Assembly: GCA_963817685.1 (NCBI GenBank)
Contig: CAWFPN010000003.1
Coordinates: 401,772-465,771, forward strand
Length of the DNA: 64,000 nucleotides
DNA from: an uncultured Verrucomicrobiae bacterium
GTDB taxonomy: Bacteria; Verrucomicrobiota; Verrucomicrobiia; Palsa-1439
Direction of reading: 5' to 3'
The notes under the pieces are model-generated. The model was not told the DNA's origin and did no database searches. It saw only the letters and a program-made list of their open reading frames with translations. How positions within the stretch are numbered: position 1 is the stretch's first letter; each line of letters begins with the position of its first letter. The translations under genes were made by a program, and so were the position numbers. Below are positions 1 to 8,227 of this stretch, in pieces.

Positions 1-1409
1 GAGGTGATGTTGAGGTTGGTGATGCCGGCATTGCTGATCGTGATGATTTCGGAGCGTGTGCCGCCCTCGGCAACCGCGCCGAAATCGGAGTTCGTCGGCG
101 CGAACGTCACCACGGATTGCGCGAGTGTGGCGCTGCCGCCCAGGTTGATCAGGTTCAGCGGGTTCGATCCCGAGGAGCCGATTTCCAGCGTGGCCTGCGG
201 CGTGTTCGTTGACGACGGTGTGTAGGTGACTGTGACCACCTGCGATGTGCCGGCGGCGATGCCAAACGGCGGGGTCGGCGCCTGCACGGCGTAATCCGGA
301 CTGTTGGTCACCAACGTCACAACGTCCACCGTGCACACCGCGTCGCCGGCGTTGGAAATCGTCACGCTGAGGCTGGCGTTGGTGCCGATCTGCACCGAGC
401 CAAAACCCGACGGCGATGCGCTGACCGTCAGCGAGCACGTGGCTGCCGGCACGGCGCCGGTGCCGGTGACGGAGATAAATTGATTGGGGTTGTCCGGATC
501 GCTGCTGGTCACGCCGATGACGGCGTTCTCCGGCGTGGCGGTCAACGGCGCGAATTGCAAGGAAAGGCTCGACGAGGCGCCGGCGCCCAGCATCAGGGGC
601 AGGGAGGGCGCGGTCAGTGCGTAGTCGGTGCTGCCATTGAGCGTGATGGCGCTGACGGTGCAAACGGCGCTGCCGTTGTTGCGGATCTGCACCGAGAGCG
701 TGCTGTTCGTGCCGACCAGGATGGAGCCAAAGTTCAGGTTTGTCTCGTTCAGCGTGACGTTGCAACTGGGGGCGACGGTGGTCCCGCTGCCGTTCAGCGC
801 CACCACAAAGTTGGTGTTGTCGCCGGAGATCACCAGATCGCCGTTGTCGGGAACGAAGGGCACCACAAACGACGTGATCGTGCCCATGGGTTTGATGTAG
901 CCCAGCGGGGCGATTTGCACAGAGACGGGCTTGGACGGGCCGTTGGTGCTGCAGGGATTGTAGACAAACGTGATCCGCGCCTGCACCTCTGCCGCGATCA
1001 CCCCATCGCCGCCGAAGCCGGTGGCTTGGAGGATCAGCGAGGTGTCCCCGATGTAGAGAGGCACGACGTCATTAAACTGCACGAGTGTGCTGACAATCTT
1101 CCTGGTGGAATGATCGTAAGCGACCAGCCGAAGATCGGGGCGCACCCCTGTCTCCAGGCAATCCATGTCGCCCACGGCAATAGCCAGGCCGATTGACGCG
1201 GCATTGGTGCCCAGCAGCAGGCTCTGCTTGGCATTGAGATTGATGAAATCAACGTGGCTGGGCGTGAATTGGGCGCCTGTGAGAGAGTCCTGCACCGCGA
1301 ACACGTTCGTGTCGCTGGCATACCCGTGCATGGGAAAACAAACCAAACAGGCAGACAAAATCAGACACCACAGCGGTACCCTATCCGCCAACCTCAAACC
1401 GAAAGCCAT
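1..1409 (-). CDS. Large secreted repeat protein, N-terminal part (gene continues beyond the window start). Sec signal peptide followed by repeated Ig-like units of HYDIN/choice-of-anchor-D type.
   Basis: Minus-strand ATG at 1409 gives MAFGLRLADRVPLWCLILSACLVCFPMHGYA (signal-peptide-like). Repeated ~100-aa units follow with the motif LxFGxxxVGTNxSLSVxIxNxGxAxCTVxxxTL. No stop before position 1. Translated by hand; it is not in the ORF track because it is open-ended. Confidence 0.55.
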   Translation of the reverse strand, partial: MAFGLRLADRVPLWCLILSACLVCFPMHGYASDTNVFAVQDSLTGAQFTPSHVDFINLNAKQSLLLGTNAASIGLAIAVGDMDCLETGVRPDLRLVAYDHSTRKIVSTLVQFNDVVPLYIGDTSLILQATGFGGDGVIAAEVQARITFVYNPCSTNGPSKPVSVQIAPLGYIKPMGTITSFVVPFVPDNGDLVISGDNTNFVVALNGSGTTVAPSCNVTLNETNLNFGSILVGTNSTLSVQIRNNGSAVCTVSAITLNGSTDYALTAPSLPLMLGAGASSSLSLQFAPLTATPENAVIGVTSSDPDNPNQFISVTGTGAVPAATCSLTVSASPSGFGSVQIGTNASLSVTISNAGDAVCTVDVVTLVTNSPDYAVQAPTPPFGIAAGTSQVVTVTYTPSSTNTPQATLEIGSSGSNPLNLINLGGSATLAQSVVTFAPTNSDFGAVAEGGTRSEIITISNAGITNLNIT

Positions 1410-1450
1410 AGTGCCGGAAGTGTTGCCCGAAAAAGAAAGTCGGGTCAAGC

Positions 1451-1474
1451 TTTTTAAAAGGGAATTATATACTT
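1451..1474. repeat. Left terminal inverted repeat of the IS1595-family element.
   Basis: 24 bp, the exact reverse complement of 4118-4141. Confidence 0.7.
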
Positions 1475-1509
1475 AAGTCCCCTTTTGTCCGGTAGCGCCT
1501 TAATTTGAA

Positions 1510-2236
1510 TTACTTCTTAGGTTTCGCCGCTTGTCCGTTCTGGACGATAAACGACATTCCAAACGCGCCAATGTTTAGGTACGGCACAAAATCCCATTGC
1601 GGCGTCCGGGCGCGAAACTCAGCGAAGGCGTGCTCTTCTCCGGCTCGTTCTGTTGCTGAAAAGTTAAAGAAGTCGTCGAAGGCAATCATCATCCCATGAC
1701 GTAGCCTTGGCTCCAAGAAACTCAAAACATCCATGGTGCTGGAATACATATCGCAATCCACATATGCGAGGGCGATTTTGCTAGGAGGGTTGGGATAAGG
1801 GAACTTCCCGAGACTTTCGCTGTAGAATCCCTTGATGGCCGTATAGCGACCCGATGTAATGTGATTGCTAGCGCAAATCTTACGGAATTGCTCCAACTGA
1901 GGTAGCCATGGAACCGGCAATCCACTCTGGATGCTCATCTGCCCTGCATTGCTTAGTGGGCATGCCCTCAAAGGAATCAAACGCCCAAAGATGTGATTCG
2001 CGTCCATGGCGGCGAATCTCGCGCCACGCCATGGCAAAAGTCTGGCCGCTGTGGCAACCAAACTCAATGTAATCTCCACTAATCCCATTTGCAGTCAGTA
2101 GGTAGATGGCGCGAGCAAAGAAGGCTTCGCGGTCAATCAAGGCCGTCATCATCGGGGCGTTCGTGAGCGTAGACCATCCGCGTTTCGCCATCCGTACAAC
2201 AGGCTGCGGGACAATTTTCCGAAGAAGTTCGTTCAT
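1510..2236 (-). pseudogene. TylF/MycF-family class I SAM-dependent O-methyltransferase, interrupted by a frameshift.
   Basis: Two overlapping minus ORFs (1880..2236 and 1510..2088) in different frames. Frame A carries ...YIEFGCHSG...WAFDSFEGMP; frame B carries ...LEQFRKI...IALAYVDCDMYSSTMD (the TylF DxDxYEST-like motif). Together they reconstitute one ~240-aa TylF-like protein. The shift lies around 1885-1965. Confidence 0.5.
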
Positions 2237-2340
2237 AATTGTACTCTATATACTCACTTCTGAGCCTTGCTCGCGATTGCCGCCCGCAGTGCAGTTACCG
2301 GGGAATTGCCGTAGTAGAGGGAGTTTTTCATTTCCGAATG

Positions 2341-3159
2341 TCAGGCAAACTCATCGGGTGCGTTAGACTGGCCGAGCAACAACTGTTTTTGTCCGTAAAA
2401 AACAGCGGCGAACAATTCGTAGAAACTTGTTTTCGATGTGGCAGCCTGCAAAAGCGCCGTGACCTTCGTAATGTGTTTTTCGAGATTTTTCTTGGCGTGC
2501 TTTTCAATGAAGGTGTGGAGCTTGAGCAATTCGGCAATGTCGTTTCCGTCACAGTACGCCGTCCGTCGCCGTTTCAGTTCATCGGGAAGTCCGCTGTAAA
2601 GCGGCTCATAGATGAACCGATTTGTCCATCGTCCTACCCAGCTTGGCTTATTTTCGGATTTCTTAAATTCATCCCCATAGAGGCGCAGCAATGCACTGTA
2701 GAATTCGTCAGGGAATGTCTTTTTCCATTCCTCGGGGATTGACAACAGTGCGCGGTCAATCGGTCGCAGCCGGTTTCGGGCGTCACGGAAGGCAAGAATG
2801 AGCCGGAGACGAAATTCCTTATTGTCCTCAGTCGGCCTTGAAAGCGTGAGAAGAAAAGCAATGTGGTCAAAGTTCAAATAGGCAAATTTTTCTGGCCTCC
2901 CAGCCCCGTCCAATAATTTTCCGATTTGAAATCGGAAAACCCCTAATTGTGCAAGCTGGTCGCTGTGTTCTTCAATCAACTTGCGGAGACTTTCGTGTTG
3001 AATGCCGAACAGTTTTGCAACCGCCCGCGAATCGGCCATCAGGTCGGGGCCTTGCTGGTGAATTTTGAGTAGAGATTTCATCCCCTGTTCCTTATTTGCC
3101 GGTCTATATTCCAGCACCTTGTCGGTAATCGCGGCCAGTGCTTCCAGTTCCTTGCTCAA
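2341..3159 (-). CDS. Phage Rha-family regulatory protein with a C-terminal P63C-like domain (passenger gene of the IS element).
   Basis: N-terminal ...LMADSRAVAKLFGIQHESLRKLIEEH resembles the Phage_pRha domain. The C-terminal region is P63C-like. The start overlaps the transposase stop by 4 nt (translational coupling). Confidence 0.45.
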   Translation of the reverse strand: MSKELEALAAITDKVLEYRPANKEQGMKSLLKIHQQGPDLMADSRAVAKLFGIQHESLRKLIEEHSDQLAQLGVFRFQIGKLLDGAGRPEKFAYLNFDHIAFLLTLSRPTEDNKEFRLRLILAFRDARNRLRPIDRALLSIPEEWKKTFPDEFYSALLRLYGDEFKKSENKPSWVGRWTNRFIYEPLYSGLPDELKRRRTAYCDGNDIAELLKLHTFIEKHAKKNLEKHITKVTALLQAATSKTSFYELFAAVFYGQKQLLLGQSNAPDEFA

Positions 3160-4070
3160 GCAATCAATTCCTTGTAGGTGATGCGCCGTCCCGCCGTTGC
3201 CACCGTGAGGCTGTCGAGCCGGTTCATTGTGTGCCGCTTCACATTGCCGTCATTGAGACGGAAGGAAAATTCGTTGATGTAGCGGTTCAGGTGCGGCTTG
3301 CTTGCGTGATGGTAGACCCCGTGCAAACCGCGTTTGAAAACTGCCCAAACACTTTCAATGCCGTTCGTGTGAGCCATGCCCCTCACATATTCTCTCCCGC
3401 TGTGATTGACGGGAAGGTGATTGAATTGCGGCATCCCTCTGTAAGCCCGGTGTTCATCTGTACAAATCGTTGTACCGGGTTCAACCGTCGCGCACACTTC
3501 CGGTTGAATCTCCGCCGCGCTGGTTCCTTCAATCATTTTCGCCCGGACTTTACCGCCTCGTTGGCGCATCCCAAGCACAGTAGCCTTGCCGACCGTCCCG
3601 CGACCGGCCAGAAGCTTTTTGCTCTTGTGCTTGTTGTCCTCTTTGCCGCCCACAAAGGTTTCATCAATTTCGACAATCCCTTGCAGCTTGGTCAAGTCGT
3701 TGCCGCAAGCTTCCCGCAACCGATGGAGTAAAAACCAAGCCGTCTTCTGTGTGATACCGATTTCCTTGGAGAGTTGCAACGAGGAAATCCCTTTGCGTGA
3801 CGTGACCAGCAGATACATTGCATAGAGCCACTTGTGCAGCGGCACATGCGACCGCCCGAAGATGGTGCCGGTGCGTACTGTGAAATCGAATTGGCAGGCA
3901 TTGCAGCGATAGTATCCGCCCTTGCGCGTCGTGATTCGCTCGCCTGTCTTGCAGGTCGGGCACTTGACGCCATTCGGCCAGAGCCGTCCCTCAAGATAGA
4001 CGCGAGCCGATTCTTGGTCGGGAAACTTCTCAAACAACTGGAAAGTGCTTATGGTGACTTTGTCGTTCAT
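3156..4070 (-). CDS. IS1595-family (ISXO2-like) DDE transposase.
   Basis: N-terminal transposase zinc ribbon (CPTCKTGERIT...YRCNACQFDF) and a DDE_Tnp_IS1595-like core (IVEIDETFVGGK...ICTDEHRAYRG...). 304 aa. Confidence 0.85.
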   Translation of the reverse strand: MNDKVTISTFQLFEKFPDQESARVYLEGRLWPNGVKCPTCKTGERITTRKGGYYRCNACQFDFTVRTGTIFGRSHVPLHKWLYAMYLLVTSRKGISSLQLSKEIGITQKTAWFLLHRLREACGNDLTKLQGIVEIDETFVGGKEDNKHKSKKLLAGRGTVGKATVLGMRQRGGKVRAKMIEGTSAAEIQPEVCATVEPGTTICTDEHRAYRGMPQFNHLPVNHSGREYVRGMAHTNGIESVWAVFKRGLHGVYHHASKPHLNRYINEFSFRLNDGNVKRHTMNRLDSLTVATAGRRITYKELIA

Positions 4071-4117
4071 ACTCGATTTCCTTTATGCCCCAACTATAGC
4101 ATTTTCTGCTAGGTAGT

Positions 4118-4141
4118 CAAGTATATAATTCCCTTTTAAAA
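4118..4141. repeat. Right terminal inverted repeat of the IS1595-family element.
   Basis: 24 bp, the exact reverse complement of 1451-1474. Confidence 0.7.
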
Positions 4142-4179
4142 ACCCCCGGGCAAGGCGGGAAAAGGCGCGGGAAGCGACG

Positions 4180-5196
4180 CTATTTCGCGGCACGGGGGGG
4201 CCGGATGGGAACGTCGACCTCTTCCTGTGTCCAGCGGTAGATGATTTCACGGTAATGCAAATTCAACGCCGCGCCCAGCGCGATCATGCACAGGATCGCC
4301 AGGCTGAAAACGATGTAGCTCGAATAATCGTGGTAGATCTTCATCGCGAACTCCTGGCCAAACCCCTGCGCCACCAGCGCCACCGTGGTGATCCGGGCCA
4401 GGTTGCCGATCACGGCCAGCGGGATGCTCGCGAAAAACAGCAGCCACTTCTTCCAGGCCGTGTTCATCGTCACGTAGCCGTACAACGACGTCAACGCCAT
4501 CAACGCCACCAGCGAGCGGATCCCGCTGCACGGGTCCGCCACGTCCAGCGGCTGGAAGCGTTGCGCGTGCGAGTAAATCCCCGTGCCGTCCTGGTACACG
4601 TCCATGCCCAGCCCGTTCAGCAGCGTGGTCGAAAATTTGGCGACGAACATGCGCAGCGGAAAGGAAACGTAGGGCTCAAGGAAATTCAGCGGGATCATGA
4701 ACAACAGGAATGCGCAGGGAAACCAGAGTTCCTTGGCCCATGCCCACCCCGCCAGATAGAGCACCAACCCGAAGATCAACACCACCATCGATCCCGCGAC
4801 GAGCCGCGGATTTTCCGCGCGCACGCCGCCCCAGTACATCGCCATGGCCAGCACCACCACCACCAGGCCGAAATTCGGCGTGCTCATCGGGACCGCGTGC
4901 AGCTTGGTCTTCCACCGCCAGATGAACAACCCCACCGCCGCCACCGGCACCACGTACCCATGCGCGTACTCGCCGCCACGGCTCCAGTAGGACAACAGCC
5001 AGCCCACCAAGGACGTCGGCGTCACGCCCACCACACACGTCTTGGCGATCACGTAGGCGTAAAAAACCAGCCCAATCGCGGCCAGCAACAGCAAGCCGCG
5101 TTTCTTCGCTTCCGGATCGGAAGATGCCGGAGAATCGCCAGGTGCAGACTTCCCGCCCGGTGGGGAAAACAAATCCCACAGATTAGTCGCCTTCAT
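4180..5196 (-). CDS. Exosortase (XrtA/EpsH-like), the transpeptidase of the PEP-CTERM sorting system.
   Basis: Polytopic membrane protein containing the exosortase hallmark DPCSGIRS with a conserved Cys. A PEP-CTERM substrate is present at 31856..32890. Confidence 0.7.
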   Translation of the reverse strand: MKATNLWDLFSPPGGKSAPGDSPASSDPEAKKRGLLLLAAIGLVFYAYVIAKTCVVGVTPTSLVGWLLSYWSRGGEYAHGYVVPVAAVGLFIWRWKTKLHAVPMSTPNFGLVVVVLAMAMYWGGVRAENPRLVAGSMVVLIFGLVLYLAGWAWAKELWFPCAFLLFMIPLNFLEPYVSFPLRMFVAKFSTTLLNGLGMDVYQDGTGIYSHAQRFQPLDVADPCSGIRSLVALMALTSLYGYVTMNTAWKKWLLFFASIPLAVIGNLARITTVALVAQGFGQEFAMKIYHDYSSYIVFSLAILCMIALGAALNLHYREIIYRWTQEEVDVPIRPPRAAK

Positions 5197-5250
5197 ACTT
5201 GAAACCTATTGAGTATCAGCCAGAACCGCTTGAAAGTCAAATCTGGCCTG

Positions 5251-5340
5251 CTTCCGGTCGTGGGCCAATTTGTTGTAGTGGCGTCCCTCCCGGACGCTTC
5301 TGCCAGCCCCGCCGCCGGGACGGCGGCCGCTACAACCCGA
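5251..5340. repeat. REP/MITE-like palindromic repeat, family A copy.
   Basis: TTGTAGTGGCGTCC..CCGGGACGGCGGCCGCTACAAC hairpin plus a CAACAGTTCATATCCCATGGC tail. Homologous copies at 7329-7640, 30181-30260 and 44765-44890 (inverted). Confidence 0.7.
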
Positions 5341-5431
5341 CGGGCACCGCAGCCAACAGTTCATATCCCATGGCGGTTTTGAAACCGACCCACCACCCTG
5401 CTTCCCACCAGCACACGATAGACCGTCATCT

Positions 5432-7264
5432 CTAGCGGGCGCGGTCGGTTATCAGAATCTGCTCGCCGTCCCGTGTCATGGGACGGGAGATGCGCAGGGG
5501 CAAATTCGGATTCGGCCGCTGGAACATCATCAGCCATTCCTGTTGATACCCCGAGAGCATCTCCAGCACGTCCTGCTGTTGCAGCGTCGCCTGGGTCAGG
5601 TAAATCCCCGAAATGACGCGGACGTTGTCGTTGATGGCCAGGTAATTCTTCGTGTCAAACGGCTTCCAAATCGTCGTCCGGTCCGCGTACCACGCCACCG
5701 CCCAGGGAACGTCGCTGACCAACACCTCGTTTTCATTAAAGGCCTTGCCCAGGACGCCGATCACGCCGCTGTGGTACGGCGGATACGGATCGGTGGTGAC
5801 CGGCGGCAGGATCGCCAGCACAAACGGAATCACGTTCAATCCCGCAAACAAGCCGATCATCCCATACCGCGTCACCCGCGTCCGGAACTGCAGCCGCTCG
5901 AACATCACATAAAAGAACGCCGACCCGTAGACGATCACCAGCGGCGCGAACATGGTCAGGAAATTCCAGCGCGGCGGCCCCGCCACGCTCAGCCACACGA
6001 CGCAGCCCATCAGGCTCCACAAGAGAAACCTCCGCAGCCGGAACACTTCGTCGCGGCGAAACCGGTGCAGCAGCGAGACGAAGAAAAATGCGATGAGATA
6101 GTTCGCGCCAATGTCCTTGATCGTCACCTGGTACAACAGCCGGAGGTTCACCAGCCCCTTGCGCATCAGGGCCCGGAACCGCAGGTACGGGGCCGGACCG
6201 AACGTCCGTTCCACCTGCCCCGGCTTGATCTCCGTCGGCGATCCGCGGCCGGTATCGTCCCAGACGCTGTACGGGGCCAGGCCAAACACCGAGCCGCACA
6301 CCTTCTCGTTCCTCATCATCCACGGCGTCATCACCAGCGCAAACACCGCCAGACACAGGCCCACCTTGAGGTACCATTGTTTGGGGAACGACACCGCCAC
6401 GTACACCAGCAACGGCGGCAGCACACTGATAAACGCGTACTGCGTCAACGTCCCCAGCGCCACCGCCAGCACGCTCACCGCCAGCGCCCCGTCCACCCAC
6501 CAGCGCGACCGGCTGCCCGTCTGCTTCCATTGCTCCGCCTTGAACACCCCGTAGGTCGCCAGCAGGAACATCACCGTCATAAATTCCACCGGCAACCCCT
6601 CAATCGAGTACGCCAGCAGCGGTTCGCAAAACAAATACAGAAACGCGCTCATCACCGCCACCCGATGATCGAACAAATCTCGCGCCAGGATGTACGTCAG
6701 CAACAGCCCCACCAGAAACAGCATCCAGCCCATGAGCATCAGCAGCCGGTCGCACGGCAGCTTCTGCGTGCGCGTGATATCATACGCATACTCCAGTTCC
6801 TCCGGCGTGGCGTGCATCATCCAGCCCGACGTATTCAGTTCCGGTGTCAACGTCACCGTGAAATCCGGTTTCACCACCCGCAACATCAACGAGAACAGCC
6901 AGGGATACACCGGCGGCGTCCACAATTCAGGGACCGAGTCCCTGGTCCCTTCGATGGTCGGTTTGCCGACGGAGTTGAGATAGTAAATGTCGAACGGCCG
7001 AACGGCCTTGGTCACGTAGCCGCGGCCCTCCGCGAGATTGTGCGCCAACTGCCCCATGTCCATCGCCATCGGATCACGCAACCCGTAGAACTGCGCGCCC
7101 GTGTACAACAGAATCACCAGCAACGTCAGCAGACAAAACAACCCCAGCCGGAACCAATGCACCCCTATCCCCACGTCCAACTTGAAAATCAAATCCTGGA
7201 CCCGCTCGAACAGCGGCTTGTTCTCCGCCTCCGGATCTCTATTCTTGCTGGCAATCAAAGGCAT
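5432..7264 (-). CDS. Large polytopic membrane protein, putative GT-C-fold glycosyltransferase (ArnT/PMT-like).
   Basis: 610 aa with >10 predicted TM helices and large loops. Sits adjacent to the exosortase. Family assignment is tentative. Confidence 0.4.
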   Translation of the reverse strand: MPLIASKNRDPEAENKPLFERVQDLIFKLDVGIGVHWFRLGLFCLLTLLVILLYTGAQFYGLRDPMAMDMGQLAHNLAEGRGYVTKAVRPFDIYYLNSVGKPTIEGTRDSVPELWTPPVYPWLFSLMLRVVKPDFTVTLTPELNTSGWMMHATPEELEYAYDITRTQKLPCDRLLMLMGWMLFLVGLLLTYILARDLFDHRVAVMSAFLYLFCEPLLAYSIEGLPVEFMTVMFLLATYGVFKAEQWKQTGSRSRWWVDGALAVSVLAVALGTLTQYAFISVLPPLLVYVAVSFPKQWYLKVGLCLAVFALVMTPWMMRNEKVCGSVFGLAPYSVWDDTGRGSPTEIKPGQVERTFGPAPYLRFRALMRKGLVNLRLLYQVTIKDIGANYLIAFFFVSLLHRFRRDEVFRLRRFLLWSLMGCVVWLSVAGPPRWNFLTMFAPLVIVYGSAFFYVMFERLQFRTRVTRYGMIGLFAGLNVIPFVLAILPPVTTDPYPPYHSGVIGVLGKAFNENEVLVSDVPWAVAWYADRTTIWKPFDTKNYLAINDNVRVISGIYLTQATLQQQDVLEMLSGYQQEWLMMFQRPNPNLPLRISRPMTRDGEQILITDRAR

Positions 7265-7328
7265 GATGGTCTGTCCCGCAGCTTATCCCACACCCCCCAC
7301 CCCGCGCAAGACCCATGCCGACCCCGTC

Positions 7329-7640
7329 GTGGGCCAATTTGTTGTAGCGGCGTCCGTCCCGGACGCTTCTGCCCGCCCCGCCGCCAACAGTTCATATCCC
7401 ATGGCACTTTCAAAACCGACCCACTACCTGCGACCTGGTCGTGGGCCAATTTGTTGTAGCGGCGTCCGTCCCGGACGCTTCGGCCGGCCCCGCCGCCAAC
7501 AGTTCATATCCCATGGCACTTTCAAAACCGACCCACTACCTGCGACCTGGTCGTGGGCCAATTTGTTGTAGCGGCGTCCGTCCCGAACGCTTCTGCCGGC
7601 CCCGCCGCCGGGACGGCGGCCGCTACAACCCGGCAAAGCC
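7329..7640. repeat. Three tandem 112-bp copies of REP/MITE family A.
   Basis: Units start at 7329, 7441 and 7553 (GTGGGCCAATTTGTTGTAGCGGCGTCCGTCCCGGACGCTTC...). The third copy carries the full hairpin with the second arm CCGGGACGGCGGCCGCTACAAC. Confidence 0.75.
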
Positions 7641-7695
7641 GCCCCCCCATCATCATCCAATTGTCTCCGCACACCCCATCTGGTACACTCCGTAC

Positions 7696-8227
7696 CATGC
7701 AAACGTCCCTCGTGATGACCATTATCGGCACCGACCGCCCCGGCCTGGTCGGCCGACTCTCCGCCGTCATCGCCGACCACGGCGGCAACTGGGTTGAAAG
7801 CCGCATGGCCCACCTCGGCGGCCGATTCGCCGGCATCCTCCGCGTCGAACTCCCGGCCGAAAACGAACGGCCCCTCCTCGCCGCCCTGCGCGCCCTCGAA
7901 ACCGAAGGCCTCTCCGTCCAAGCCCAAAAAGACGAAACCGCCCCGCCCCTTGCCGCCCAGAGATCCGCCATCGTCGAAACCGTCGGCCACGACCGCCCCG
8001 GCATCGTCCGCCAAATTTCCCAGGTCCTCGCCCAACACGGCGTCAACGTCGAAGAACTGACCACCACCTGCGAAAGCGCCGCCCAAACCGGCGGCCAACT
8101 CTTCCGCGCCACCGCCCGCGTCCAACTCCCCGACTCCTGCCCCCTCCCCCAACTCCAAAAAGCCCTCGAAGAAATCGCCACCGACCTCATGATCGACATC
8201 ACCCTAAAACCCACCCCCTCCCCGTAG
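7696..8227 (+). CDS. ACT-domain protein, glycine cleavage system regulator GcvR-like (two ACT domains).
   Basis: MQTSLVMTIIGTDRPGLVGRLSAVIADHGGNWVESRMAHLGGRFAG... and a second ACT domain IVETVGHDRPGIVRQISQVLAQHGVNVEEL. The ORF-track N-terminal extension lies inside REP repeats and is rejected. Confidence 0.65.

Follow-up and report, generated by a model that had tools for sequence, protein, structure and literature searches.

The locus described here raises the question of whether a transposase gene and the two genes that follow it, all lying between one pair of inverted repeats, form a single mobile element or whether a simple insertion sequence (IS) happens to stand beside unrelated genes. 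A preliminary description of this DNA had proposed an IS1595-family element whose repeats enclose the transposase and two more genes, all read in the same direction. Both points held up on closer analysis: the transposase carries the DDE_Tnp_IS1595 and Zn-ribbon domains, and the three genes are all on the minus strand. We put the probability at about 0.9 that a single, intact IS1595-family transporter IS, 2674 bp long (1460-4133), was inserted here. The kind of element is already known, and the present one is a new member of the passenger-carrying IS1595 ISs. The features are collected in Table 1; the window is the whole 64-kb stretch of DNA that was analysed.

Table 1. Features of the element and of its insertion site (positions in the window)
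Feature	Position	Strand	Basis or detail
Target-site duplication, left copy, TTTTAAAA	1452..1459	.	Same as 4134-4141; directly adjoins the GGG end
Terminal inverted repeat, cargo end, GGGAATTATATACTTAAGTCCC	1460..1481	+	35.6 bits; 2 mismatches to clade consensus
TylF/Methyltransf_24-type O-methyltransferase, frameshifted	1510..2236	-	ORFs 1880-2236 and 1510-2088
orf2, 272-aa Rha (winged-helix-like) and P63C protein	2341..3159	-	Pfam; TTG start
IS1595-family DDE transposase, 304 aa, intact	3156..4070	-	Pfam, NCBIfam, dN/dS
Promoter-like site into transposase	4093..4120	-	-35 TTGACT, 16-nt spacer, TG-extended -10 TATAGT; 10/12 consensus positions
Terminal inverted repeat, transposase end, GGGAATTATATACTTGACTACC	4112..4133	-	37.3 bits; 1 mismatch to clade consensus
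Target-site duplication, right copy, TTTTAAAA	4134..4141	.	Same as 1452-1459
Terminator-like hairpin 3' of exosortase gene	4143..4161	-	Scan: TTCCCGCCTTGCCCGGGGG then TTTTTAAAAG

Ends of the element

The 24-mer TTTTTAAAAGGGAATTATATACTT occurs in exactly two copies in the window, inverted relative to each other, at 1451-1474 (+) and 4119-4142 (-), and had no matches in 100 shuffles of the sequence. The preliminary description took this pair for perfect 24-bp terminal repeats, set the right edge at 4141 and saw no target-site duplication. The exact inverted pair is there, with its right copy ending at 4142, but the real repeat is 22 bp long and imperfect: 19 of its 22 positions match, the outer 15 of them without a break. 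The clade-type end, identified in related elements, is GGGAATTATATACTTGACTCCC, and the element proper runs from GGG to CCC. Directly flanking these termini is a palindromic 8-bp direct repeat, TTTTAAAA, so that a duplication of the size expected for the IS1595 family is present after all. When a target duplication is palindromic, it can thus escape notice by passing for an extension of the perfect inverted repeat. The element ends take the form GGGAATTATATACTT.

The whole element was scanned on both strands with a position weight matrix derived from the ends of relatives (104 ends). The two termini gave the sole end-like scores (35.6 and 37.3 bits); the best score within the element, -9 bits, lay at or below chance, the mean shuffle maximum being -6.3. 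Near the transposase stop there is no internal inverted repeat with 3 or fewer mismatches, nor any with 5 or fewer against the clade consensus. In the 104-bp spacer that separates orf2 from the methyltransferase gene, an 8-mer, AGTATATA at about 2243-2250, looks to the eye like part of an end, with agreement at about 11 of 22 positions, but it fell outside the ten best matrix scores and was set aside.

These results bear on the alternative that the IS is a simple one, of about 1.1 kb, with unrelated chromosomal genes beside it and a distal repeat that is a solo end or a coincidence. The IS1595 family includes simple members of about 1 kb, and the preliminary description had itself named this scenario, with a second repeat adjacent to the transposase stop (~3100), as the case against its own reading. 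The matrix found no such internal end, its best internal score contrasting with those of the termini; the 8-bp duplication brackets the 2674-bp unit and no shorter one; and the related element L099 repeats the layout of transposase, orf2 and third gene inside repeats and a duplication of its own. Base composition points the same way. At 51.3% G+C against about 62% in the flanks, the element is poorer in G+C than its surroundings, as had been noted before, and the shift spans all three genes (54%, 49% and 52%). A simple IS is thus unsupported, and we consider it extremely improbable.

The region is no composite transposon either, with a single transposase gene, a single pair of ends and no second copy in the window. 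It has instead the make-up of a transporter IS, in which orf2 and the methyltransferase gene lie between one pair of repeats with no end inside. The sugar O-methyltransferase is a passenger unrelated to transposition; orf2 recurs behind transposases of two families.

The transposase and its promoter

The transposase matches Pfam DDE_Tnp_IS1595 (PF12762, E=6.1e-45) over profile positions 1-153 of 153, carries an N-terminal zinc ribbon (Zn_ribbon_IS1595, PF12760, E=5.2e-9, residues 17-60) and scores 210 bits against NCBIfam transpos_IS1595 (NF033547, cut-off 75). Its dN/dS against relatives is 0.07-0.08. Matches on plasmids were all below 60% identity and were annotated merely as 'IS1595 family transposase'.

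The -35 hexamer of the promoter-like site, TTGACT, is located inside the transposase-proximal inverted repeat and belongs to the conserved clade end. We infer that the transposase gene is transcribed from this site, with the qualification that promoter and terminator calls of this kind are consensus matches at background frequency. An outward-facing TATAAT, a -10-like hexamer by consensus match only, lies inside the inverted repeat at the cargo end. In the mechanism that we propose, the zinc-ribbon DDE transposase would recognise both ends and insert the element through an 8-bp staggered cut at A/T-rich sites, and the genes downstream of it would be expressed as an operon.

No second copy of the exact element was found in the 64-kb window by tblastn, blastn or the matrix scan, and the contig index records the exact transposase at the present locus alone. 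An exact-protein look-up of the neighbouring exosortase gave no record, and no empty site was recovered. The uninserted site would contain …GCTTTTTAAAAACCCC…. Because no second copy of the exact element was seen, we infer the mobility of this copy from that of its relatives.

Related elements and their cargo

The IS1595 clade is large, with at least 7890 protein clusters at E <= 1e-40, and 80 related loci were found in many phyla. Seventy relatives range in size from 1.4 to 4.9 kb and therefore all carry extra DNA; among the 70 members examined, the clade seems never to be 'naked'. Perfect 8-bp direct repeats stand next to GGG/CCC in 58 of the 70, in the same register as here, and the duplicated targets are 80% A+T. 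In one Nitrospirales genome, an element of 1692 bp (transposase 65% identical to the present one) is present in seven identical copies, and the duplication differs from copy to copy; members with passengers are thus able to transpose.

The cargo of the clade consists mostly of genes for DNA methylases, Vsr, HNH and Mrr proteins, PAPS-reductase and QueC-like proteins. Restriction-modification or DNA-modification genes are frequent companions of these transposases, which makes it plausible that the clade helps such systems to spread. The present element is different in this respect: none of its genes was found to encode a known defence protein, a nuclease or a methyltransferase acting on DNA. 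Where orf2 follows the transposase in relatives, the third gene varies. It encodes an HNH nuclease in L099, within that element's own repeats and beside the duplication ATAAAAAA; N6_N4 DNA methylases in L100 and L002, one of which PADLOC calls MTase_II (E=1.8e-142); and an unknown 182-aa protein in L108/L109.

The Rha/P63C gene

The product of orf2 combines a Phage_pRha domain (PF09669, E=2.9e-11, residues 43-127) with a P63C domain (PF10546, E=2e-14, residues 143-206). Its N-terminal half matches PHROG families 518, 2657 and 2384, which comprise a Rha-like regulator and an anti-repressor. Neither a PADLOC match nor a PDB relative by sequence was found for it. An AlphaFold2 model (pLDDT 69.5) compared with the PDB by Foldseek gave weak matches to winged-helix regulators alone, at E >= 0.2.

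The preliminary description had reported a 4-nt overlap between orf2 and the transposase stop. That overlap is borne out by comparison: the junction reads TTGA here, and ATGA in three relatives. An internal ATG at about 3081 is the counterpart of the start in 247-aa homologues. A start solely at this ATG is ruled out for the IS1595 copies by the conserved ATGA overlap and by purifying selection on the 26-aa N-terminal leader, and it is also contradicted by L100, which has GTG/Val at the internal position. The dN/dS of the gene is 0.04-0.10, and the leader is likewise under purifying selection. Translation of orf2 would be coupled to that of the transposase through the overlap together with this leader, which would belong to the IS backbone.

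Altogether, 116 homologues of orf2 were found. At least nine loci, with two transposase families among them, have the gene immediately downstream of a DDE transposase and in the same orientation. Close IS1595 relatives in which it comes straight after the transposase number at least four (L002, L099, L100 and L108/L109), and four further loci (L102, L103, L105 and L090) have it behind an IS1-like transposase. The 4-nt overlap is conserved in the IS1595 elements, whereas the IS1-like loci have a gap of 6-22 nt (three loci) or of about 265 nt (L105). The orf2 proteins of the two kinds of element are 74-83% identical and intermixed in the tree, and nucleotide homology between IS1595- and IS1-linked copies is confined to the orf2 core, the flanks being outside direct comparison. 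From such comparisons, orf2 appears to behave as an exchangeable module that has come to lie repeatedly behind a transposase, in an IS1595 subclade and in an IS1-like lineage. About 65 other clade members, with transposases 59-72% identical, have no orf2 homologue. In L114/L115 (transposase 87% identical) the orf2 core has been lost and the 8-bp duplication is intact; L114 keeps the leader alone, followed by a methylase-Mrr fusion.

What, then, does orf2 do? Judged from sequence, it is most likely a DNA-binding regulator of the operon of the element or of its cargo, a role to which we give somewhat less than an even chance. It could instead be an accessory component of transposition that helps to recognise the ends, choose the target or regulate the transposase, so that the element would have a two-gene core and a cargo slot. 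The gene is always directly behind the co-oriented DDE transposase in the loci counted above, it is under strong purifying selection, and it remains when the third gene changes. That said, the roughly 65 clade members without an orf2 homologue transpose, the seven-copy Nitrospirales element included; the duplication is intact in L114/L115 without the orf2 core; close homologues of orf2 occur without any transposase; and ordinary restriction-modification cargo, too, can sit tight to the transposase stop (L007 and L030, judged by ORF coordinates). An accessory function of this sort is therefore unlikely.

The surroundings of orf2 suggest another possibility, namely that the gene and its neighbour constitute a defence, anti-defence or addiction cassette spread by the IS, the copy in the window being degenerate and its partner slot holding an unrelated decayed gene. 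In such a cassette, orf2 would serve as sensor or regulator, with a DNA methylase or a nuclease as its partner. Its partners in IS copies include the HNH nuclease and the two N6_N4 DNA methylases, and the cargo of the clade is dominated by the gene classes listed above. Homologues without a transposase are found near restriction-modification, DarTG and DUF1156/DUF499 genes and in phage-like contigs, with a type IIG restriction-modification enzyme together with DarTG, a BsuBI/PstI system, DUF1156-DUF499, MT-A70 and a C5 methylase among their neighbours. A cassette is nonetheless doubtful. PADLOC does not match orf2; the partner is a sugar O-methyltransferase here, the 182-aa unknown in L108 and a KilA-N protein in L102; and the association is drawn from about 13 contexts rather than from a statistical census.

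On a bolder and, in our estimation, improbable reading, the Rha/P63C protein would be an undescribed companion of two DDE transposon families. By regulating the cargo operon, or by acting at the transposon ends, it would couple transposition to the expression or deployment of cargo for DNA modification or defence. The two families concerned, ISNwi1-like IS1595 and IS1-like, are distinct by sequence, and the variable slot usually holds DNA methylases or nucleases. Whatever its role, a Rha/P63C gene common to IS1595- and IS1-type transporter elements offers a lead on the accessory genes of simple transposons.

The methyltransferase gene

The last gene is broken. A +1 frameshift near 1897 splits it into two ORFs, and Pfam TylF matches both halves, so the domain of a class I SAM methyltransferase is present but its ORF is not intact. 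The extra base, in TCA-G-TTG, is not part of a homopolymer run, and in intact homologues of 235-259 aa the reading frame continues without interruption across the same stretch (...MATSLEQF...). The gene would thus be a pseudogene created by the frameshift; at best, it would count as split. Logan contig L001, an assembly of the same locus, has the identical methyltransferase sequence and the same element structure; should L001 and the window have been assembled from one set of reads, the frameshift could be an assembly or read error common to both.

The closest intact homologues are 69-72% identical and lie in glycosyltransferase/polysaccharide clusters. Their position among glycosyltransferases led us to reject the idea of a DNA-modification enzyme like the cargo of related elements, and the reconstructed protein had no PADLOC match. 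The earlier label of a TylF-like O-methyltransferase of sugar or macrolide type is accordingly correct for the domain and for the sugar, given the polysaccharide-cluster relatives, but not for a macrolide type, nor for a single intact gene. In the relatives the last slot is variable; here it may have captured a sugar-type O-methyltransferase from a polysaccharide cluster, to be inactivated later by the frameshift.

The preliminary description had also called the cargo unusual. This is true of the methyltransferase, since no TylF-type cargo was seen in about 70 relatives, but not of the Rha/P63C gene, which recurs behind transposases of two families. We know of no description of the pair, a transposase-coupled Rha/P63C gene and a sugar O-methyltransferase pseudogene. 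A literature search on ISNwi1, on the P63C domain and on IS1595 elements with methyltransferase passengers found nothing specific.

Comparison with known elements

MTnSag1 of Streptococcus agalactiae carries lincosamide resistance. The same resistance is carried by tISCpe8 of Clostridium perfringens (PMC5704250), whereas the present element has no resistance gene. In these two passenger carriers of the IS1595 family, both of them studied by experiment, the inverted repeats measure 25 bp and the direct repeats 8 bp (PMC5704250). They resemble the present element in their DDE transposase, the approximate length of the repeats, the direct repeats and the internal passengers. They differ in being integrative mobilizable elements mobilised by conjugation (PMC5704250), no transfer-like function having been seen here, and the present host is an environmental, high-G+C bacterium.

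The IS1595 family is characterized by 8-bp duplications and by a Zn finger and a DDE domain, the zinc ribbon being found in all groups except IS1016 (PMC8101967), and transporter ISs have been described (PMC3129680). For family members of the ISNwi1 type with passengers, the reference is Siguier, Gagnevin & Chandler 2009, as cited in PMC3129680 and PMC8101967. The present element is like them in having one transposase with Zn ribbon and DDE_Tnp_IS1595 domains, repeats that begin with GG, 8-bp duplications and passengers between the transposase and the distal end. Its ends, GGGAATTAT, fit ggnnatTAT, which we take to be the motif of the ISNwi1 group; a tentative assignment to that subgroup is drawn from this motif rather than from ISfinder sequences. 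Among the transposase homologues, no source named ISNwi1.

The IS1-like elements L102 and L103 have the same order of transposase, Rha/P63C gene and variable gene (in L102, the KilA-N gene), and L102 has an 8-bp duplication, AGATTTGG. Their transposases, however, give no significant BLASTP match to the one in the window and score 41-53 bits against NCBIfam transpos_IS1, below the cut-off of 100. The inverted repeats are also different (GGTAGTGGGCTACTTTGAA), and a tRNA gene and other ORFs lie upstream of the transposase.

Proteins with the architecture of orf2, about 30% identical to it, are encoded by isolated phages. One is the 'Rha family transcriptional regulator' of Pseudomonas phage YMC11/02/R656, which has the same two domains and is about 30% identical along 89-90% of the length. 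Unlike such phage regulators, orf2 sits in an IS and starts with a leader of 26 aa, in overlap with the transposase stop. The phage relatives, along with the Rha and P63C domains and PHROG matches to phage regulators and anti-repressors, raise the possibility that the region is the remnant of a prophage or genomic island with a phage-derived Rha-like regulator, the IS lying inside it by chance. Foreign DNA, however, stops exactly at the inverted repeats and the duplication, there are no other phage genes, the flanking genes encode an exosortase and an ASH-domain protein, and the same ends enclose the three-gene layout at other loci. We give a prophage or island remnant hardly any weight.

The insertion site

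A transporter IS was, on our preferred reading, inserted between the exosortase gene (4180-5196; TIGR02602 EpsH, E=4e-48) on one side and the gene for a large ASH-domain protein (start at 1410) on the other. Judging from the letters of the site, its target is the A/T-only T-tract of the terminator-like hairpin between these two genes. With a G+C content of 51%, well below the 62% of the host, the element arrived by horizontal transfer. By occupying the terminator/promoter gap that leads from the exosortase gene to the downstream ASH-domain gene, the insertion may alter expression. For annotation, the point to keep in mind is that the three genes of the element are foreign.

Boundaries of the element and its target-site duplication

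Exactly two copies of the 24-mer TTTTTAAAAGGGAATTATATACTT, in inverted orientation, are present in the 64-kb window, and 100 dinucleotide-preserving shuffles gave no match even when up to 3 mismatches were allowed; the inverted-repeat observation is real and non-random. To this extent the preliminary description of perfect 24-bp repeats stands, with the right arm ending at 4142, one base past the 4141 recorded there. All genes between the arms lie on the minus strand, and the transposase scores 210 bits against NCBIfam transpos_IS1595 (cut-off 75). As had been noticed from the sequence, the G+C content of the element (51.3% overall; transposase 54%, orf2 49%, methyltransferase 52%) is below that of both flanks (~62%). 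Across 4515 nt, whole element included, the window matches a Logan contig (L001) at 100% identity, so the structure is not confined to one assembly, though the two assemblies may share source data.

Features of the element and its surroundings, in window coordinates
Feature	Position	Strand	Remarks
ASH-domain protein gene, start codon	1410		large protein
Inverted copies of TTTTTAAAAGGGAATTATATACTT	1451-1474; 4119-4142	+; -	24-mer
Target-site duplication	1452-1459; 4134-4141		TTTTAAAA
Element	1460-4133		2674 bp
Terminal repeats	1460-1481; 4112-4133		each partly palindromic (GGGA.TTA...TAA.TCCC)
Methyltransferase	1880-2236; 1510-2088	-	two overlapping ORFs; TylF/Methyltransf_24-type domain matches
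orf2	2341-3159	-	272 aa; Phage_pRha + P63C domains
Transposase	3156-4070	-	304 aa; Zn_ribbon_IS1595 + full DDE_Tnp_IS1595 (E=6e-45)
Candidate transposase promoter	4120-4093		consensus match only
G+C-rich hairpin	4143-4161		terminator-like
Exosortase gene	4180-5196		TIGR02602, E=4e-48
112-nt unit	7319-7654; 5250-5361		three tandem copies; one diverged copy (63-96% identity)

The true ends were placed by comparison with relatives. A scan with the transposase, using one genome per species, recovered 80 loci (59-88% identical) that span Acidobacteriota, Proteobacteria, Nitrospirota, Planctomycetota, Chloroflexota and others. In related loci the conserved end GGGAATTATATACTTGACTCCC brackets the transposase gene, and identical 8-base direct repeats lie just outside GGG and CCC in 58 of the 70 elements with both ends locatable. 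These duplications are 80% A+T, in hosts that average 58% G+C. When the register of the relatives' ends is applied to the window, TTTTAAAA flanks the element on both sides; the earlier statement that no target-site duplication is visible is therefore incorrect, and 8 bp is the size expected for the IS1595 family (PMC8101967, PMC5704250). As TTTTAAAA is a palindrome, its two copies mimic an extension of the inverted repeat. The apparent 24-bp perfect repeat is composed of a 15-bp perfect repeat, TTTTAAAA and one coincidental T/A pair, and the ends match at 19 of 22 positions overall.

A single inserted unit

Both strands of the window were scanned in full with a position weight matrix built from 104 related-element ends. 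Scores were 37.3 and 35.6 bits at the two termini, and the sole other positive scores (19.6 and 1.0 bits) came from the same termini on the opposite strand, owing to the partial palindromy of each end. Within the element the highest score was -9 bits, so that no internal end was found there; maximum scores in shuffled sequence averaged -6.3, the largest being 8.3. In the absence of a further end, either near the transposase stop or elsewhere, the inserted unit is the whole three-gene segment bounded by the outer repeats, as first proposed. The transposase domains, the ends and this three-gene unit also bear out, in kind, the description of an IS1595 element enclosing passengers. A check for additional copies found no second transposase, orf2 or end in the other 61 kb of the window.

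Relation to known insertion sequences

Transporter ISs, which carry passenger genes, were defined on the IS1595 family (Siguier et al. 2009, cited in PMC3129680). Among the passenger carriers studied experimentally are MTnSag1 and tISCpe8, whose inverted and direct repeats are 25 and 8 bp long (PMC5704250). The window element has each of the features described for the family (PMC8101967): a Zn finger, a DDE domain and duplications of 8 bp. It is a further member of this known kind. Its end motif presumably fits the ISNwi1 group.

Cargo and mobility across the clade

The transposase family is large (at least 7890 clusters at E <= 1e-40), and no bare IS of ~1.1 kb was found among the 70 clade elements. 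These range from 1.4 to 4.9 kb, and further ORFs lie before the transposase, behind it or on both sides; 99 of 110 such ORFs are singletons by BLASTP. Pfam matches among the 71 clade ORFs of >=100 aa are mostly to DNA-modification and restriction genes, including methylases of the C5 (3), N6_N4 (2), D12 (2) and N6_Mtase/Eco57I type IIG (2) kinds together with Vsr, HNH, Mrr, HSDR_N and proteins of the PAPS-reductase and QueC-like kinds. To our knowledge, neither this strong cargo bias nor the recurrence of a Rha/P63C module in two transposase families (see below) has been described so far; both rest on a survey of ~80 loci and are not proven.

One Nitrospirales chromosome (OZ253473.1; L048-L054) carries a 1692-bp element in seven identical copies, whose 8-bp duplications all differ; this shows that cargo-bearing members of the clade are mobile. 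Each copy has, upstream of the transposase, a 167-aa ORF lacking Pfam annotation, and small unannotated ORFs (100-180 aa) occupy this position in many other members. At three loci (L041, L050, L063) another, more distantly related IS1595-family transposase (31-50% identity) is encoded no more than a few kb from the clade member, that of L041 inside the element boundaries, which suggests nested or clustered insertions.

The start of orf2 and its coupling to the transposase

Nearly all of the 116 orf2 homologues have both Rha and P63C domains. Most are ~247 aa long and start where the window ORF has Met27; a form of 272-274 aa, with a 26-aa leader, occurs in IS1595 elements. The start codon of the leader overlaps the transposase stop, as ATGA in three relatives (L002, L099, L100) and TTGA in the window. 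Transposase and orf2 are both under purifying selection (dN/dS 0.07-0.08 and 0.04-0.10), and for the leader by itself dN is 0.12-0.32 with dS >1. This constraint, together with the GTG/Val that L100 has at the internal start position, indicates that the upstream start is used. Translational coupling of the two genes, proposed earlier from the overlap in the window, is supported by the conserved overlap and by these same two observations. In several other elements, L007 and L030 among them, the first cargo ORF starts at the transposase stop or only a few bases away (judging by ORF coordinates), so close packing is general in the clade and not specific to orf2. That orf2 is a true transposition accessory seems unlikely.

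orf2 as an exchanged module

In the closest elements the transposase-orf2 core is common and the following gene differs. L099 (transposase 93%, orf2 76% identity; 2567 bp, duplication ATAAAAAA) has an HNH nuclease; L002 (88% and 83%) has an N6_N4 DNA methylase (PADLOC MTase_II, E=1.8e-142) and then another ORF; L100 (orf2 74%) has a different N6_N4 methylase, which ends 6 bp from the inverted repeat; and L108/L109 (orf2 86%) have a 182-aa protein of no known function. The L114/L115 element (transposase 87% identical, 3233 bp, duplication AAAGAAAA) keeps the orf2 leader alone, as a 46-aa ORF followed by an N6_N4 methylase-Mrr fusion. The leader is therefore part of the IS backbone, into which the orf2 core has been inserted. 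The L114 copy (4938-8170) sits in a viral-looking contig with dCMP deaminase, DUF4406/dGTP diphosphohydrolase-like proteins and many small ORFs.

The orf2 core is also found directly behind an IS1-like transposase (L102, L103, L105 and, truncated, L090), which scores 41-53 bits against NCBIfam transpos_IS1, under the cut-off of 100, and has no significant BLASTP match to the window transposase. The L102 element (124-3780) lies between inverted repeats of its own, GGTAGTGGGCTACTTTGAA, with AGATTTGG duplicated (8 bp) at its borders; a tRNA-Ser gene precedes its transposase, and a Rha/P63C gene and a KilA-N protein follow. The same kind of transposase is preceded by a tRNA-Ser with a different anticodon in L103 (2069-5086) and by a tRNA-Ile in L105.

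L099 and the window have transposases with 93% identity, yet the L099 orf2 is closer to the L102 copy (83% identity) than to the window copy (76%). IS1595-linked and IS1-linked copies are interleaved in the orf2 tree, and the nucleotide matches found between them are confined to the orf2 core. On this evidence orf2 is a module exchanged between elements. A Rha/P63C gene that recurs behind two kinds of transposase does not warrant the label of unusual cargo first given to it. The reading of orf2 as a transposon companion module, doubtful as it is, is a more interesting lead than the element itself.

Possible functions of orf2

The N-terminal half of orf2 matches PHROG Rha-like regulators and anti-repressors, and its C-terminal half matches families of unknown function. 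Isolated phages encode the same architecture at ~30% identity. A sequence search found no solved structural relative, and the AlphaFold2 model (pLDDT 69.5) gave only weak winged-helix matches. We favour, at a probability of about 40%, a DNA-binding protein that regulates the operon of the element or of its cargo. Transposase-free homologues adjoin a type IIG restriction-modification enzyme with DarTG, a BsuBI/PstI system, DUF1156-DUF499 and a C5 methylase, and one stands beside MT-A70 in a phage-like contig. That orf2 is a partner in a defence or addiction cassette seems unlikely. At L082-L089, L090 and L101, close Rha/P63C homologues (64-78% identity) lie outside any intact IS and adjoin defence genes, namely DarT-DarG plus the type IIG enzyme, the BsuBI/PstI restriction-modification genes or the DUF1156-DUF499 pair.

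A frameshifted methyltransferase

The third gene has a TylF-type domain, as first described, but it is not intact. An extra base (TCA-G-TTG, ~1897), outside any homopolymer run, shifts the frame to a stop at 1880-1882, so the gene is a pseudogene or at best split. Restored to a single frame it encodes 241 aa; in its best homologues (P0117-P0120; 69-72% identity, 235-259 aa) a single ORF runs uninterrupted through ...HPEWIAG.MATSLEQF.KIC.... PADLOC and NCBIfam searches with it gave no match. All three homologues with readable contigs have GT4 glycosyltransferases, PMT_2-type transferases and further methyltransferases as neighbours. The ancestor was a sugar or polysaccharide O-methyltransferase and neither a DNA methylase nor the macrolide enzyme once suggested.

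Insertion site and predicted expression

The target is a T-tract after the hairpin, downstream of the exosortase gene and ~45 bp upstream of the start codon of the ASH-domain gene, towards which all of the element's genes are directed. In the mechanism we propose, the transposase would bind the 22-bp ends and insert with an 8-bp stagger into A/T-rich DNA. Its putative promoter has a -35 TTGACT within the conserved end and a TG-extended -10 TATAGT; orf2 would be co-transcribed, as probably would the methyltransferase remnant, and orf2 would be translated by reinitiation at the TTGA overlap. An outward TATAAT lies inside the distal inverted repeat and, more speculatively, could add to expression of the ASH-domain gene, which the insertion may alter.

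Elsewhere in the window, copies of a 112-nt unit occupy intergenic positions on either side of a gene for a 610-aa membrane protein. At their core is a 22-nt palindrome, GTTGTAGCGGCGTCCGTCCCGG and its complement, and the unit looks like a REP-like dispersed intergenic repeat.
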